From the IMG/VR virus record IMGVR_UViG_3300044765_000092, positions 158,679 through 222,678 of that record: a stretch of 64,000 bases of DNA; one strand, written 5' to 3'. Position numbers and translations under genes: made by a program. This DNA is from a virus. Its lineage: Duplodnaviria; Heunggongvirae; Uroviricota; Caudoviricetes. Shown in pieces: positions 11,983-19,650 of this stretch. Each line of letters opens with the position of its first letter. Position 1 is the stretch's first letter. The notes below the pieces were generated by a model that saw only the letters and a program-made list of their open reading frames with translations, made no database searches and had not been told where the DNA came from.

Positions 11983-13269
11983 TTAGTTTCCCTTGACGCA
12001 GAGCACGGCCTTGAGCGTGTGGACCACTTCGACCAGATCTGCCTGATTGGCCATCACCTGATCGATGTCCTTGTACGCCGATGGGATTTCGTCGAGCACC
12101 GATTCATCCTTGCGGCATTCGACACCTTGGGTCTGGGCCACGAGGTCGTCGACAGTGAACAGGCGCTTGGCCTCTTTCCGTCCGTGACGTCGGCCAGCTC
12201 CATGCGAACAACTGCAATACGACTCCGTATTGCCTTTGCCACGCACGATGTAAGACCGCTGGCCCATGGAACCCGGAATGATCCCCAGGTCGCCGGTGCG
12301 AGCACGGATCGCACCCTTGCGCGTCACCCACACGTTCTGGCCGAAGTGGCTCTCCTGCTCCACGTAGTTGTGGTGGCAGTTGATGGCTTCTTCGGTAGTC
12401 TGGAGATCTGGAAATGTACGCTTGAGCGCCGACAGCACGCGACGCATCATAAGATGCCGGTTGATCCAAGCGTAGTTTTGTGCCCAGGTCACGGCCGTCG
12501 TGTATTCCTTGAATTCCGGCGTGCCTTCCGGAAAGTACGCGAGGTCCTTGTCCGGCAGGTTGATGAACCATTTGGCAGCCAACGTCCGTGCCCGATCGAT
12601 GAACGACGTGCCGATCTTGTTGCCGATGCCACGCGAACCTGAGTGGAGCATCACCCATACGTTATGATTTTCGTCCAGGCACAGCTCGATGAAATGGTTG
12701 CCAGAACCCAGAGTCCCGAGTTGAGCCCAGGCATTGTCCACAGTCGTGTCTCCGACCACTGTCCCGATAAAGCCAAGATCGTCGGTCAGAATACGATTAA
12801 ACTCTCGCCGGGCGTCGACGACAGCTTCCTTGTTCTCGACGATCTCCTGTTCGCGCCGATGTGCACCACCAGGACCCAACGGTATGTCACGCTCGATCTG
12901 GTGGCGAATCGCGGTCAAGCTGTCCGGCAGCTGATCGGCCCGTAGATTGGTGCGAACCGCGTTCATCCCGCAGCCGATATCGACACCGACGGCCGCCGGT
13001 ATGATGGCCTTGACCGTGGGCACAACCGATCCGACGGTTGCACCGATCCCCAGGTGGACGTCAGGCATGAGCGCTACACCATTCGGATGAATGAACGGAA
13101 GCCGGGCGATGTTCTTGGCCTGTTGAAGAGCAGCGTCTTCGATGTCGAGGCCTTTGACCACGCGCTCGATCTCCGCGTCGAGTTCGTGGTTGATGTCCGT
13201 GACCACTTTGGTCGTTTCATTGACCCACGCCTTGATCGGCCGCGCGCCATGTTCGTGAATCACCTTCAT
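11983..13269 (-). CDS. rtcB: RtcB RNA 3'-phosphate/2',3'-cyclic-phosphate ligase
   Basis: MPDVHLGIGATVGSVVPT...AIIPAAVGVDIGCGMNAVRT...GTGNHFIE...HSGSRGIGN...INCHHNY...SCSHGAGR are near-identical to the E. coli RtcB motifs. Confidence 0.9.
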   Translation of the reverse strand: MKVIHEHGARPIKAWVNETTKVVTDINHELDAEIERVVKGLDIEDAALQQAKNIARLPFIHPNGVALMPDVHLGIGATVGSVVPTVKAIIPAAVGVDIGCGMNAVRTNLRADQLPDSLTAIRHQIERDIPLGPGGAHRREQEIVENKEAVVDARREFNRILTDDLGFIGTVVGDTTVDNAWAQLGTLGSGNHFIELCLDENHNVWVMLHSGSRGIGNKIGTSFIDRARTLAAKWFINLPDKDLAYFPEGTPEFKEYTTAVTWAQNYAWINRHLMMRRVLSALKRTFPDLQTTEEAINCHHNYVEQESHFGQNVWVTRKGAIRARTGDLGIIPGSMGQRSYIVRGKGNTESYCSCSHGAGRRHGRKEAKRLFTVDDLVAQTQGVECRKDESVLDEIPSAYKDIDQVMANQADLVEVVHTLKAVLCVKGN

Positions 13270-15300: not shown

Positions 15301-15390
15301 TTTGGCGGAGAGACTGGGAGTCGAACCCAGTGACCACGTTACCGCAGTCTACGGATTAGCAATCCGCTGCCTTACCATCCAGCCCTCTCT
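15301..15390 (-). tRNA. tRNA-Ser (GCT), long variable arm
   Basis: Acceptor GGAGAGA/TCTCTCC, anticodon loop TTGCTAA, 19-nt variable arm, T-loop TTCGACT, CCA encoded. Confidence 0.8.
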
Positions 15391-15396
15391 CCGTTG

Positions 15397-15472
15397 AGTG
15401 GTGCCGCCACGAGGAATCGAACCCCGGACCTACTGCTTACAAGGCAGTTGCTCTACCGACTGAGCTATGACG
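15397..15472 (-). tRNA. tRNA-Thr (TGT)
   Basis: Acceptor GCCGTCA/TGGCGGC, D-arm GCTC-AGTCGGTA-GAGC, anticodon loop CTTGTAA, CCA encoded. Confidence 0.85.
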
Positions 15473-15482
15473 GCGAATTGGT

Positions 15483-15618: not shown

Positions 15619-16206
15619 TCACTCACCGTGACTTTGAAGTGGCGGTGGATCATAATCCGAATCAGCCCATCCGTCTTCGACGTCCTTGACTTCATCGTCT
15701 GATGGCATCGGCTTTGGACACGGCTGCGAGGCCGCACGTAGAGCCTTGACTTCCTGAGCCAGGATATACATGGCGATGGTACCAAGCGAGAAGCAGTCAC
15801 GCACACCTTGGGTGTTGCTCGTCCACTCAGCTATCCTCTCCAGCGCCCAATCCACTGTGTATTCGTTTTCCGGTGCAGATGGGTGTTTCTTCTGTTGCAG
15901 TTGCGCCAGCGAAATGACACTCAGCTGATCGAAGAGCCGTGTGTTCTTACGCGAAAGCTCTTCTAGCTGACCCTGAAGGGTTCTGATCGTACATGCTGCG
16001 CATGGTTGCCCTTGCATCACAGCCTTGTGGTCCTTGCACAAGTTGTTTGCCAGGGAATTGGCCATCAATTGGCTTAGATACTGCAAATGAATCCGGTCAT
16101 CGGCATGAGTGTTCATCAGGTCGTTGATGAACTTATCAACCGCATCCGCGTCGTATACTCTAGCCCCATCTACGAACGATTGCTGAAAACGTCTACTCAG
16201 GTCCAT
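15619..16206 (-). CDS. hypothetical protein
   Basis: 195-aa ORF. Confidence 0.55.
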   Translation of the reverse strand: MDLSRRFQQSFVDGARVYDADAVDKFINDLMNTHADDRIHLQYLSQLMANSLANNLCKDHKAVMQGQPCAACTIRTLQGQLEELSRKNTRLFDQLSVISLAQLQQKKHPSAPENEYTVDWALERIAEWTSNTQGVRDCFSLGTIAMYILAQEVKALRAASQPCPKPMPSDDEVKDVEDGWADSDYDPPPLQSHGE

Positions 16207-16829
16207 TGGTTTGCTAAATATTTGCGGAGCTGGCTCTTGGCCTTGAGATCTGCACGGAGCATGCGTCGTGCCTCGGCTACTACAGCGAGGTTGAACTTGG
16301 CGTCAGCGACGGCCGTGTGCTGTTGTCCTGGGTGTTTGACATCCACACCCAGGAACTTTCTTAGAGTAGACACATCTCGTACGATCTTGTAATTCCAAGG
16401 TGCTTCTAGTCCACAGGACTCAAACAACGAGCCAAGTCGGGCCAGATCGAAGTCAGGATGATTACACCACAGTTCTTCAGCTTTGCTGAAGGCCTGAACG
16501 AGCGAATAATGGAGTTCTTCGACAGTTGAGGTGCCAGACGCGTAACCTAAGAATCGTTTGTTCCCGTGAGTACGTATCTGGAAGTCCAGCGTATTCTTGG
16601 TGTAAGAGCGGCCGAGCGCCAACTGCTCGGCTACCGACATGTAGTGCGTTTCCTCAAAGTCGATGCCGACGCTGAAGTCATCCGGGCTGATGTACTGACC
16701 GTATACACCCACTTCGTGGATAATGCAGTCGTACCTAAGAGAAAGGGTCTCGATATCGAGACCCACGATCTTGATTTCTTCCATGTTCTTGGACGTTGAG
16801 TGGAGCGGGAGTGCCGAGTCAAACGGCAC
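16197..16829 (-). CDS. DEDDh-family 3'-5' exonuclease (RNase T / DnaQ-like)
   Basis: Exo I IVGLDIET, Exo II NHPDFDLARL, Exo III HTAVADA. The start may be the internal MEEIKIV at 16784. Confidence 0.65.
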   Translation of the reverse strand: MPFDSALPLHSTSKNMEEIKIVGLDIETLSLRYDCIIHEVGVYGQYISPDDFSVGIDFEETHYMSVAEQLALGRSYTKNTLDFQIRTHGNKRFLGYASGTSTVEELHYSLVQAFSKAEELWCNHPDFDLARLGSLFESCGLEAPWNYKIVRDVSTLRKFLGVDVKHPGQQHTAVADAKFNLAVVAEARRMLRADLKAKSQLRKYLANQWT

Positions 16830-16902
16830 GCTTAGAGTGGCCGGATGTTAACCCGGGGCCATCCGGTCTCCTATAGGGTTCACACCCTCCCGCGTGAATA
16901 GT

Positions 16903-16990
16903 GGCCACGGCCGGGACTTGAACCCGGATTTTCGTCCCAAGGCTGTGCCCGGGGTCGACGTCCTATCCCTTAGACGACCACGACCTTTGT
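16903..16990 (-). ncRNA. tRNA-like elements that do not fold into one cloverleaf: a 5'-half-like piece and a T-arm piece
   Basis: 5'-half-like piece (gene sense): GGTCGTG-GT-CGTC-TAAGGGATAG-GACG. T-arm piece: CCGGG-TTCAAGT-CCCGG-CCGTGGC. The acceptor strands do not pair with each other. Confidence 0.3.
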
Positions 16991-17121
16991 TGATGCCATC
17001 GGCTTGCTTGAACACACAGGCTATGCGCTCAAGAAAGCCCCCGAGTTGGTCGTATCCAGTCCTCGTCGGGAGCATCTGCTCTAAATCTACACTGCCGTTT
17101 TAACAACGATCACGAATAAAA

Positions 17122-17214
17122 TGGCGCGCTCTACCGCTGAGCTACCCGCCCTTAGAATGCACAACGAAATGCACTGTGGAGGGCGGGACAGGATTTGAAC
17201 CTGTGGCCTAGCCA
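17122..17214 (-). tRNA. candidate circularly permuted tRNA gene
   Basis: Gene sense 17214->17177: TGGCT-AGGCC-ACAGG-TTCAAAT-CCTGT-CCCGCCC-T-CCA. Gene sense 17151->17122: GGGCGGG-TA-GCTC-AGCGGTA-GAGC-G-CGCCA. Acceptor strands pair 7/7 and anticodon-stem strands pair 4/5. The two halves are joined 3'-to-5' by a 25-nt linker. Confidence 0.45.
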
Positions 17215-17304
17215 TTTAGAGTATGGGTCGGAACTGTCAGAATTGAGAGCAGTCTTTGACAACGTATATCGGCAAAACTACAAGGAGCAACATCAGAGCT
17301 TTCA

Positions 17305-17398
17305 TCGGAATCGCTTCCGAGGCCATATCCAATTTGGCTTCCGTCGTGTGCATAACTCGTGCAGAACTATGCACACGACGGGCAGGACTCGAACCTGC
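17305..17398 (-). ncRNA. second permuted-tRNA-like element: T-arm and 3' acceptor strand, then a 26-nt TGCA-repeat linker, then the 5' acceptor strand and a D-arm-like hairpin
   Basis: GCAGG-TTCGAGT-CCTGC then CCGTCGT-G; linker TGCAtagttcTGCAcgagttaTGCA; then C-ACGACGG-AA-GCC-AAATTGGATAT-GGC. Acceptor pairs 7/7 and extends to an 11-bp helix. The anticodon region is non-canonical. Confidence 0.3.
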
Positions 17399-17448
17399 AA
17401 GCTCATATCACTACAACGATCACGGATAGCCGATAACTTTGTCGATGA

Positions 17449-17468
17449 GGCTGAGTCCTAGCTCAGCC
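17449..17468 (-). other. 7-bp hairpin GGCTGAG-ctagga-CTCAGCC immediately 3' of motif copy 4, at the head of the tRNA-like cluster
   Basis: Seen directly in the sequence. Confidence 0.4.
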
Positions 17469-17478
17469 CCTATGGGTG

Positions 17479-17488
17479 TCATTTACAG
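17479..17488 (-). promoter_or_regulatory. TCATTTACAG motif, copy 4
   Basis: 23 nt downstream of the stop of CDS 17511..18296. Directly upstream of the tRNA-like cluster. Confidence 0.45.
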
Positions 17489-17510
17489 TACGAGGCGCTG
17501 CGCGCTAGGC

Positions 17511-18296
17511 TCAGCCTCGCACATTGGTCACGGTGCCGAACTGTTCCATGATCAGGTCGGCGATAGCGTTGCCGATCTTGGAGTCGATGGCCTCGATGTC
17601 GTTGGCGCGATTGCGTGCCTGATGGCAGGCCACGATCATCTCGTCCAGCAGCTCCAGAACCTTGGCCTTCTCGGCGGCCGAAACGGCGCCAGACCAGATC
17701 TTCGTGGTGAAGGTGCCGACCACCACATCCTTGCTGGCTTCCTTGACCTGCGCCGGATGCTTGTCGGTCGCCGGAGCCAAGACCACCGGAGTCATGACCT
17801 TCTCGGTCTTGCTCACATGGGTCTCGTCGGTGACCCACGCACCTTCGATGTTGTTGGAGTCCGGTTGCCACGACCTGGAGGCATCGAGCGTCGGCATAGT
17901 GGACAGCAACGCCCTGAGCTTGCCAAGGCGATTCTCCAGGCCCATCAGCTCGTCGACCGGGACACTGGTCGCCACAGTGTTGCCGCGTACCACCAGATCG
18001 GCCTTGGCGTTCTGGTTGCTGGCGTTCTTGCTGGCCATCACGTTCTCGGCCTTGGCCCAGAACTGCAGAAAGTAGTCGACGGTCAGCGGCACAGTGGTGC
18101 TCAGCTCTTTCTTGACCATCGCAGCCTTTTCCAGAGAATCGTTCTCCGGGCTCTCGGCCAGCATCTTGAGCGTCTTGGTCTCACCGCGGAAGTAGCTCTC
18201 CGCTTTGGAGAACTTGGTCCGGGTGTCGTCGGCCATCTGATTGGCGGTAGCAACCGCAGTCTTTTCAGCGGCCAGGAGTTCGTAGAGCTTTCCCAT
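17511..18296 (-). CDS. hypothetical protein
   Basis: ORF 17511..18443. The N-terminal 49 aa are Arg-rich junk. The probable start MGKLYELL is at 18294-18296. Confidence 0.55.
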   Translation of the reverse strand: MGKLYELLAAEKTAVATANQMADDTRTKFSKAESYFRGETKTLKMLAESPENDSLEKAAMVKKELSTTVPLTVDYFLQFWAKAENVMASKNASNQNAKADLVVRGNTVATSVPVDELMGLENRLGKLRALLSTMPTLDASRSWQPDSNNIEGAWVTDETHVSKTEKVMTPVVLAPATDKHPAQVKEASKDVVVGTFTTKIWSGAVSAAEKAKVLELLDEMIVACHQARNRANDIEAIDSKIGNAIADLIMEQFGTVTNVRG

Positions 18297-19078
18297 GGTG
18301 ATTCTTTCTTGACGTTGATGATCACAGCAATAGCGGATCCAACCTCTGCCGCGTTTGGCTGGATCCTGGTCACAAAACCCTCGCTCCGGGCTGCGATGAG
18401 CGTTACGTAGAGTAGCTCCTGGGCGGACTCGGTGCCTATCCACCTGTCAAAACCTGGGTCTCGAATCCGAGTGTAGGCCACGGATCGTCAAAGCGGGAGT
18501 GTGAGACTGGCTGAGAGGCAAATTCATCTCACTACTACAGGCGACGGACTTCAAGGCGAGCTTACCCACGCTATCGCTCGCACCGGCACCGACGATCAAC
18601 CGTAGCAGTCGTCAGTGGTTTCTTGGGTGGGGCGATGGCCGGAGTCACGATCCCTACTAACCGAATTGCCGCTATCACGCGTATCGCGTGCAATCCAGAT
18701 TCGGCACCCCACAGATGGCGAGACCGCACGGCACTCGGCAACAGGAGCGACCTATCACCAAATGACAGTCCTCTAGGCGACCGTGATTTGCACTGACATC
18801 GCTTCTCTTGCGGTCGAGGATGGAACCCGCGCTAAGTCTCATTGAAGAAAGCTCTACAGCCGTATTAAGCGAGTGCGCTGCGGTAGCAACGCACCCGAAG
18901 GGAGGAGGATGAGAGATCAACAAGCCTCTTGGCAGGGACTTGGTCAAAAGAGCAATGGCTGTAGAGCGTAAAGGTGTAAGGTGCGACCCTTCGCAGGTAG
19001 GTCGCACGCCCCTCGGTTAACTGCGTGTCACGAACCCCTCTTGCGCAGGGCCGTAGGACAGATCAGGGGAATTCAGCG

Positions 19079-19498
19079 TTAGCCGATTACTGACAGGTCC
19101 ATGCCGCAGGCGCGGACCTTACTCACGGTTTCTAGATTGATCGTGCGATAACCAGCAGCCTGAACATCGAAGATCGTCATATAAGGGCGATCGATCGCAA
19201 CTGTTTTGTTGTCGCCTCCCTTCAGATGCTTGCGCACCTGGAAGCGACCAGTCAGCTTGCGGTATGAACCGTCCTGTTTAACGAACTCCACCGTCAGAAA
19301 ACGATCCGCTTGTGCCCGCAGGAATTCCTTCAGGTTCACTCGGTGGATCTGGATCTGGGTCTCTGCTTTCGCAGCTGTGACCGCAGAAGCTGCTTTTTCG
19401 GCTGGAACAGTTTGGGCCACAGGTTGAAGCGTGAGGGAGGGCACACTCAGGTCTGAGGCAGAAGACTGCGCAGTCTCGATGGTGGTTTGTTGGCACAT
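19079..19498 (-). CDS. hypothetical protein
   Basis: ORF 19079..19549. The ATG at 19496-19498 (MCQQTTIE) is preceded by AAGGA. Confidence 0.5.
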   Translation of the reverse strand: MCQQTTIETAQSSASDLSVPSLTLQPVAQTVPAEKAASAVTAAKAETQIQIHRVNLKEFLRAQADRFLTVEFVKQDGSYRKLTGRFQVRKHLKGGDNKTVAIDRPYMTIFDVQAAGYRTINLETVSKVRACGMDLSVIG

Positions 19499-19640: not shown

Positions 19641-19650
19641 TCATTTACAG
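19641..19650 (-). promoter_or_regulatory. TCATTTACAG motif, copy 5
   Basis: 8 nt downstream of the TAA stop of CDS 19659..21446. Confidence 0.45.

Follow-up and report, generated by a model that had tools for sequence, protein, structure and literature searches.

GOLLD and ROOL, both of which are Rfam families, are large ornate RNAs that occur in phages and prophages and, in phages, often lie near tRNA genes. The polycistronic mRNAs of phages also contain stem-loops at which RNase III acts in processing or stability, such as the R-sites of T7. Besides, trans-acting small RNAs such as RsaE/RoxS carry C-rich or anti-Shine-Dalgarno seed loops. The present work is centred on a gap of 782 bp (18297-19078, minus strand), which the ORF list leaves between a DUF7873 gene and a gene of 139 codons within the 64-kb stretch of viral DNA that was analysed (the window). 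The genes around the gap are all on the minus strand. In an earlier note on this DNA, the gap had been proposed to encode a structured non-coding RNA of 600-780 nt. One thermodynamically exceptional RNA-type fold is predicted at 18845-18972, but a structure over the full length is not supported, and about 550 nt lie at background level.

The locus can be compared with each of the systems mentioned above. The domain at 18845-18972 would resemble the T7 R-sites in being a discrete and stable multi-helix element between co-oriented genes, devoid of a promoter or terminator signature of its own, and stacking of its 11-bp and 12-bp helices would be possible. However, there is no sequence or family relationship between the two, and the domain lies in an unusually long spacer of 782 nt instead of a short intercistronic gap. 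As in RsaE/RoxS, an unpaired CCUCCUCCC may be presented between stable hairpins, although neither an Rfam match, nor a promoter or terminator of its own, nor conservation was detected for the domain. The likeness to GOLLD and ROOL is that of a large ORF-free phage interval near tRNA or tRNA-like genes; in contrast to these RNAs, the gap gives no match at E ≤ 10, is mostly without structure above background and has no homologues. With YrlA and the bacterial Y RNAs (RF02553) the domain shares only the general arrangement of a terminal stem that encloses a pyrimidine-rich loop. On the other hand, the gap contains neither a YrlA or Y_RNA match nor a tRNA-like module and, unlike in YrlA systems, no Ro60/TROVE protein (sought for a Y-RNA reading) was found among the 24 neighbours scanned. 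Nothing relevant was found in the literature.

The DUF7873 gene shows 65.7% DNA identity with ORF270 of the Ralstonia jumbo phage phiRSL1, which marks the window, as far as gene similarity can place it, as a distant phiRSL1-like jumbo phage. The closest protein relative of this gene among 5.8 billion proteins is 57% identical, and the phage appears to be without a close relative among the sequences searched. Upstream of the gap there are the 139-aa gene, hereafter the WYL_2-like gene, and a gene encoding a 595-aa DUF8224 protein. The phage carries an RNA-gene island consisting of tRNAs, YrlA-like RNAs, RtcB and an Rv2179c-like exoribonuclease, the last two being encoded near the gap. The six tRNAs of the window are its only Rfam matches at gathering thresholds, and ARAGORN agrees with them. 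A tRNA-like cluster had been described about 1 kb away from the gap, and it is there: two sub-threshold YrlA-like matches are located 870-1200 bp from it, directly downstream of the DUF7873 gene, and these YrlA-like RNAs are conserved in relatives, phiRSL1 included. An identical Logan contig of 16 kb (L040) is also available, and the independent gene call made on it leaves the same 782 bp uncalled, together with a further gap of 726 bp that flanks the DUF7873 gene at its opposite end. The features of the locus are collected in Table 1.

Table 1. Positions in the window of the genes, reading frames, motifs and predicted RNA elements in and around the gap
Feature	Position	Strand	Remarks
YrlA-like match 1	17103-17231	same as gap	sub-threshold
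YrlA-like match 2	17289-17427	same as gap	sub-threshold
CTGTAAATG copy	17488-17480	minus	upstream of YrlA-like RNAs
DUF7873 gene (left neighbour)	17511-18296	minus	complete; Pfam match E 6e-67, positions 1-242 of the 244-position profile
126-aa ORF	18101-18481	minus	GTG start; codon log-odds -23.9; 196-nt overlap with DUF7873 gene
Imperfect 10-bp hairpin	18335-18366	minus	40-70 nt upstream of DUF7873 start codon; z -1.5, 20/200 shuffles as stable; not significant
110-aa Cys/Arg-rich ORF	18675-19007	minus	GTG start; codon log-odds -17.2
Structured multi-helix domain, 128 nt (predicted)	18845-18972	minus	only significantly structured element of the gap
Segment complementary to DUF7873 codons 2-5	18847-18857	minus	11/11 positions with 18282-18292
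Closing stem P1, 3' strand, GGCUGUAGAGC	18851-18861	minus	followed by a UUUCUU tail
Inner hairpin H2	18870-18897	minus	12 bp, UACC tetraloop, two G-U pairs
CU-rich strand UUGAUCUCUCAUCCUCCUCCCUU, 23 nt	18898-18920	minus	mostly unpaired in centroid structure
Inner hairpin H1	18921-18942	minus	6+2 bp, one U-G pair; in MFE and centroid structures
Closing stem P1, 5' strand, GCUCUACAGCC	18957-18967	minus	11-bp perfect inverted repeat with 18851-18861, arms 95 nt apart
Hairpin, 9-bp core 18981-19007	18978-19011	minus	70-100 nt downstream of WYL_2-like stop codon; z -2.2, 8/200 shuffles as stable
139-aa gene (right neighbour)	19079-19498	minus	sub-threshold WYL_2/Sm-like match
Promoter-like motif CTGTAAATG	19642-19650	minus	upstream of WYL_2-like gene; nearest copy upstream of gap

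The gap had been called hairpin-dense in the earlier note, a description that is not sustained when perfect stems are counted, their number being that of the genome average. Stems with 7 bp or more and a loop of 3-14 nt occur once in the gap (mean of 1.09 per 782-nt window of the genome) and stems of at least 6 bp three times (mean of 3.6). The individual stems that had been cited do exist, at 18981-19007 (8-9 bp, loop 9-11) and at 18870-18897 (12 bp, two of them G-U when read on the minus strand). When the gap is folded as a whole, the z scores of the minimum free energy (MFE) are -1.65 (minus strand) and -0.52 (plus strand), with 20 shuffles per strand. The 150-nt windows between 18300 and 18800 give z values from +1.2 to -2.1, and for approximately 550 of the 782 nt the folding is not superior to that of shuffled sequence. 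The window of 150 nt at 18850 is a lone outlier, its z values being -4.8 (minus) and -3.6 (plus). In 195 minus-strand windows from the same genome the mean was -0.68, the standard deviation 1.13 and the minimum -3.7; the value of -4.8 is below this minimum, so that even this unbiased figure sets the element apart as a true outlier.

The 128-nt domain has an MFE of -49.9 kcal/mol on the minus strand, with z -6.6 and none of 200 shuffles as stable, but its boundaries were picked after seeing the fold, so that this z is inflated and the window value of -4.8 is the unbiased one. On the plus strand the MFE is -49.4 kcal/mol and z is -4.8. The fold depends for the most part on a single 11-bp inverted repeat. 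It is nearly equal on both strands; the minus strand has been assigned from the orientation of the genes and not from energetics. Some asymmetry is found in H2, whose G-U pairs would be A-C on the plus strand, where the fold is only an interrupted stem of 5+3 bp. Both the minus strand and a role of the domain at the RNA level, instead of the DNA level, are to be taken as candidate assignments only. The CU-rich strand contains CCUCCUCCC, which is anti-Shine-Dalgarno-like, and UUGAUCUCUCAUCCUCCUCCCUU is the complement of the GGAGGAGGA run pointed out in the earlier note. The hairpin that precedes the domain (19007-18981, minus strand) lacks a U-tract, the sequence after it being CUUACACCUUUACG.

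As regards transcription, the 9-mer CTGTAAATG is present in 10 exact copies, all of them on the gene strand and at gene ends or in intergenic DNA. When one mismatch is allowed the number rises to 19, which is reached by none of 100 shuffles, and CTGTAAATG is a putative promoter on this basis. Neither CTGTAAATG nor a second leader motif, ACTCAACC, has a copy inside the gap. No sigma-70-like promoter or terminator-like site was found in the scan of its minus strand, and the terminator scan detected no minus-strand intrinsic terminator there. Since CTGTAAATG is found at 19650-19642 and neither CTGTAAATG nor a canonical terminator is found in the gap, a single read-through transcript of the minus strand would cover the WYL_2-like gene, the spacer and the DUF7873 gene.

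The reading that is tentatively favoured, with a probability somewhat short of even, is that the gap is a lineage-specific intercistronic spacer in an RNA-gene island, co-transcribed on the minus strand and containing one candidate structured RNA module. Transcription from CTGTAAATG would read through the spacer into the DUF7873 gene. On thermodynamic grounds, the structured part is only the promoter-proximal fifth of the spacer, that is, the hairpin 19011-18978 followed by the domain 18972-18845. This module would act at the RNA level as an intercistronic stability or processing element, with the stacked 11-bp and 12-bp helices resembling the substrates that RNase III cleaves in the polycistronic mRNAs of phages; another possibility is its release as a small RNA, about 130-170 nt long. 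An RNA-level role of either kind, as a processing/stability element or as a small RNA, for a module of about 130-170 nt is considered nearly as probable as not. The remaining 550 nt or so (18297-18845) would be unconstrained, and they are probably the leftover of the genes or tRNA genes with which relatives fill this position. There is no covariation because the gap is not conserved, and thermodynamic stability on its own would be weak evidence that the module is functional.

The conservation of the gap was analysed in 120 related loci with DUF7873 homologues, which were drawn from IMG/VR, JGI metagenomes, phiRSL1 and Logan. Searches with blastn, nhmmer and tblastn recovered only the identical contig L040 for the gap itself, tblastn matching in these loci only the N-terminus of DUF7873 in the flank of the query. 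Distant blastn against phages and plasmids gave no match in the gap either. A covariance model built from the single sequence of the domain found only itself in approximately 885 kb of related sequence and in the window, which represents 64 kb of the phage's own genome of about 238 kb. The exact inverted-repeat stem pattern has no match in viral contigs and one, in a Brevinema MAG, in 596 Gb of genomes, where about two are expected by chance. This match was rejected as a homologue of the domain because the covariance model does not recognise it. A MITE or repeated palindromic element was also discarded, as there is a single copy within the window and none in the related loci. Judged by these comparisons, the gap is lineage-specific.

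The gene order of the relatives is in line with this result. In most of them an ORF ends no more than 150 nt upstream of the DUF7873 gene, and in phiRSL1 the distance between ORF271 and the DUF7873 homologue is 58 bp. In several relatives with larger gaps the space is filled by tRNA arrays (L008, L010, L014, L052, L069 and L045). Homologues of the WYL_2-like gene and of the 595-aa gene are not located upstream of the DUF7873 gene in relatives, and the gap therefore coincides with a break in the local gene order. In loci that do have WYL_2-like homologues, neither a gap nor an RNA comparable to the present one was seen downstream.

This lineage-specific position, with its lack of a conserved gene order upstream of the DUF7873 gene, is also what would be expected if the 782 bp were a functionless remnant, decayed or rearranged after the loss of a gene or of a tRNA array or at a recombination junction, and if the domain were a quasi-palindromic scar produced, for example, by template switching. 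This explanation, the main rival, is rather unlikely, but it accounts for several observations: i) the 550 nt that cannot be distinguished from random sequence in their folding, ii) the equal stability of the fold on both strands, and iii) the motif GCUCUAC/GUAGAGC, which appears three times, nested in direct and inverted orientation as in a duplication scar, one copy matching the 5' end of the DUF7873 gene itself. It is opposed by the outlying position of the fold with respect to the 195 background windows and by the translated search of the 120 loci, in which no trace of an ancestral gene or tRNA was found. Related to this, ARAGORN detects no tRNA in the gap with default settings or at a threshold of 90%, and at 80% there is one candidate in 1 kb here versus 11 in 3.2 kb of coding control. 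A decayed tRNA array was rejected, since tRNA-like candidates are fewer than in the coding controls and the tRNA covariance model gives no match in the gap at E ≤ 10. Besides, useless DNA is usually purged by phages, although less so by jumbo phages.

Another reading gives the module a regulatory function on the adjacent gene. The module 19011-18845 (minus) could be a new phage riboregulator without family, in which CCUCCUCCC would sequester Shine-Dalgarno sequences and/or the 3' strand of P1 would switch the translation of the DUF7873 gene; this is improbable. The phiRSL1-like jumbo phages conserve this gene throughout their tRNA and Y-RNA-like islands. The core GUAGAGC of the segment 18847-18857 overlaps the 3' strand of P1, and pairing of this strand with DUF7873 codons 2-5 is mutually exclusive with the closing stem. 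A second collinear match is found between 18878-18890 and 18247-18259 (11 of 13 positions). When this chain of matches is compared with shuffled sequences against the first 100 nt of the gene, a target picked after the fact, none of 1000 shuffles reaches it; against both whole flanking genes it is reached by 132 of 1000, and standard local alignment of the gap with the whole flanking genes scores at the shuffle mean. In view of these last two results, an inverted duplication of the 5' end of the DUF7873 gene is no more than suggestive. Ensemble calculations on the full untranslated region give the P1 closing stem a probability of about 0.98, as against about 0.02 for the pairing of 18847-18857 with the gene start, so that a riboswitch-like alternative pairing is disfavoured. 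With RNAduplex, 717 of 1000 shuffles are as good as the untranslated region in pairing with the translation start, and long loopy duplexes are formed. The link of 18847-18857 to the start of the DUF7873 gene is suggestive as a sequence match, and the complementarity could equally be explained as a duplication scar.

The same repeats have been considered at the DNA level. The inverted repeat 18851-61/18957-67 and the match at 18282-92 would be protein-binding or recombination sites, that is, an operator or an invertible switch able to uncouple the DUF7873 gene from its start codon. The perfect 11-bp inverted repeats and the strand-symmetric fold are compatible with such an element, and 18282-92 and 18847-57 bracket 554 bp that include the ATG of the gene, the inversion of which would put an in-frame TGA upstream. 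However, the scan of neighbouring proteins revealed no recombinase or invertase, the two independent assemblies have the same orientation, and the match to the gene loses its significance when the comparison is extended to both flanking genes in full (the 132 of 1000 shuffles given above). A DNA-level element is very improbable. Repeats, iterons or tandem repeats, as in an origin or a CRISPR-like array, were not found.

The proposal of a large structured RNA of 600-780 nt filling the gap, whether intron-like, a ribozyme or an ornate RNA of the GOLLD/ROOL type, comes from the presence of a big ORF-free interval in an RNA-gene island beside tRNA-like RNAs and from the general knowledge that GOLLD and ROOL lie near tRNAs in phages. 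A scan of Rfam that included intron, RNase P and tmRNA models had been put forward as one way to check it, and no family matched in the gap at E ≤ 10. The models covered were those of group I/II introns, RNase P, tmRNA, tRNA, riboswitches, GOLLD, ROOL and Y_RNA/YrlA. With Rfam 15 at gathering thresholds there was no match in 18297-19078; at E ≤ 10 only a chance match to mir-648, outside the gap, was obtained in 18100-19300, and only noise of 8-10 bits in the structured sub-region 18820-19030. The gap fits no known family, and the family-defining features that were tested are absent from it, apart from those of an invertible switch, for which the inverted repeats are present and a recombinase domain was not found in the scanned neighbours. 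Hairpin density is average, the whole gap has z values of only -1.65 and -0.52, the windows 18300-18800 lie at background, and no homologue appeared in the 120 loci, the phages and plasmids or the pattern scans of contigs. As for an intron, both flanking genes are complete (the DUF7873 match covers practically the entire profile) and therefore there are no exons to join. The probability of a large RNA is low indeed.

With respect to coding potential, the earlier note was right in seeing no convincing ORF in 18297-19078, as indicated by the ORF list, codon usage, the gene call on L040 and the protein searches; the two ORFs that it named, 18675-19007 and 18101-18481, are present. With a codon log-odds model trained on the long ORFs of the window, the DUF7873 gene scores +109, whereas both of these ORFs are negative (Table 1). 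In sliding windows of 120 nt, the codon log-odds between 18400 and 19060 does not exceed +0.1 in any of the six frames, while real genes give +0.3 to +0.55; one minus frame is weakly positive at 18280-18400 (+0.14 to +0.24). The six-frame concatenated translation of the gap has no match at E ≤ 0.1 among the 5.8 billion proteins, and neither Pfam nor PHROGs gives anything in the gap. An exhaustive HMMER search of the 110-aa ORF against 1.84e9 proteins returned a single match, a 784-aa Cys-rich repeat protein. It was rejected as an artefact, because multiple repeat units of that protein are all matched by one segment of the ORF and the score sums about 12 weak repeat-unit matches (around 30% over 43 residues). 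The gap is non-coding as far as the present tests can tell.

It is scarcely credible that small protein genes have been missed here (the 110-aa Cys/Arg-rich ORF, a 20-aa plus-strand ORF or the 61-aa gap portion of 18101-18481): the ORFs exist, a strong SD-like run, GGGAGGAGG, precedes the ATG at 18909 of the 20-aa ORF and there is the weakly positive score mentioned above, but the codon scores are negative or in the range of non-coding frames, the SD spacing of 3 nt makes the starts of both the 110-aa and the 20-aa ORFs unconvincing, no homologue other than the repeat-driven artefact was found in either protein collection, and none of these ORFs was called by the gene caller on L040. A gene disrupted in the gap is conceivable; no frame matches the neighbours of the DUF7873 gene in the 120 loci or any of the 5.8 billion proteins, and no continuous gene homologous to the gap, by which the earlier note would have recognised a pseudogene, was found in those loci.

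These results are of value chiefly as a negative finding. The presence of a big ORF-free gap next to tRNA-like genes does not by itself argue for a large structured RNA, and the visual impression of "many hairpins" corresponds here to the genomic background. Better leads in this phage are CTGTAAATG, as a recurrent motif, and the YrlA-like RNAs that are conserved downstream of the DUF7873 gene. Should the module at the promoter-proximal end of the spacer prove functional, the RNA-gene island of phiRSL1-like jumbo phages, which has been little studied, would gain an orphan RNA with a regulatory or processing role.

The DUF7873 gene is followed directly downstream by a second ORF-free gap, which holds two sub-threshold matches to YrlA (bacterial Y-RNA-like) and a match resembling a tRNA T-arm and acceptor (Table), and in which the folding z-scores go down to -4 to -6. 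Relatives including the Ralstonia jumbo phage phiRSL1 keep this sequence on the downstream side of their DUF7873 gene (nhmmer, E down to 5e-14), whereas the target gap on the other side of the gene is not conserved; the related loci listed for this conservation are L001 and L003 (both phiRSL1), L002, L041, L043, L055, L076 and L110. AT skew flips sign in both gaps, from -0.12 to -0.20 in the surrounding minus-strand coding sequence to +0.11 to +0.18 (window 18500-19100 and 17000-17450), which is consistent with non-coding sequence in each of them, the skew not being diagnostic of strand.

The YrlA-like RNAs, together with tRNA-Ser and tRNA-Thr, are flanked by genes for an RtcB RNA ligase and an Rv2179c-like 3'-5' exoribonuclease, and as a group these components resemble an RNA-repair module. 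The neighbour proteins that were scanned yielded no Ro60/TROVE protein.

Two repeated motifs accompany the minus-strand genes. CTGTAAATG is present in 10 exact copies in the window, all of them on the strand that carries the genes of the minus-strand block and placed between genes or at gene ends, and in some copies its TAA doubles as the stop codon of the upstream gene. When one mismatch is allowed there are 19 matches, a number reached by none of 100 shuffles. This motif is a candidate for a phage promoter and is similar to the T4 late TATAAATA box. Besides, ACTCAACC(A) is repeated 13-32 nt upstream of the start codon (ATG) of several genes on the minus strand and is a candidate for a second leader or promoter motif.

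Location of the features in the window and in related loci (L-handles) with DUF7873 homologues
Feature	Location	Strand	Score
RtcB RNA ligase	window 11983-13269	minus	E 3e-131
tRNA-Ser/tRNA-Thr region	window 15303-15474	minus	
Rv2179c-like 3'-5' exoribonuclease	window 16197-16829	minus	
Second ORF-free gap	window 16830-17510	minus	
tRNA T-arm/acceptor-like match	window 16904-16943	minus	
YrlA match, sub-threshold	window 17103-17231	minus	35.3 bits, E 7e-6
YrlA match, sub-threshold	window 17289-17427	minus	33.6 bits, E 2e-5
CTGTAAATG, exact copies	window 5810-5802, 9746-9738, 14671-14663, 17488-17480, 19650-19642, 21535-21527, 24530-24522, 34312-34304, 39019-39011, 41068-41060	minus	
ACTCAACC(A)	window 943, 22487, 28754, 30558 and others	minus	
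Pistol ribozyme match	L083 2480-2540	plus	56.3 bits (gathering score 34.5)
tRNA-model match, 124 nt	L003 7566-7689 (phiRSL1 record ~188801-188924)		41.3 bits
tRNA arrays around DUF7873 gene	L008 3823-4527; L010 5390-5960; L014 5116-5759; L052 4516-4911; L069 4174-4332; L045 4612-4681		

Structured RNAs are also matched in the related loci. The pistol ribozyme match lies about 2.2 kb upstream of the DUF7873 gene of L083, a metagenomic relative. In phiRSL1, the 124-nt tRNA-model match sits between ORF268 and ORF269, and the annotation of the record carries no RNA at that place; the match may represent a tRNA containing an intron or else a tRNA-like RNA.

As for DUF7873 itself, no relative was found in the PDB by sequence. 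Because the gene lies within dense tRNA arrays in several relatives, with tRNAs directly upstream and downstream of it, DUF7873 is a conserved member of the tRNA islands of jumbo phages.
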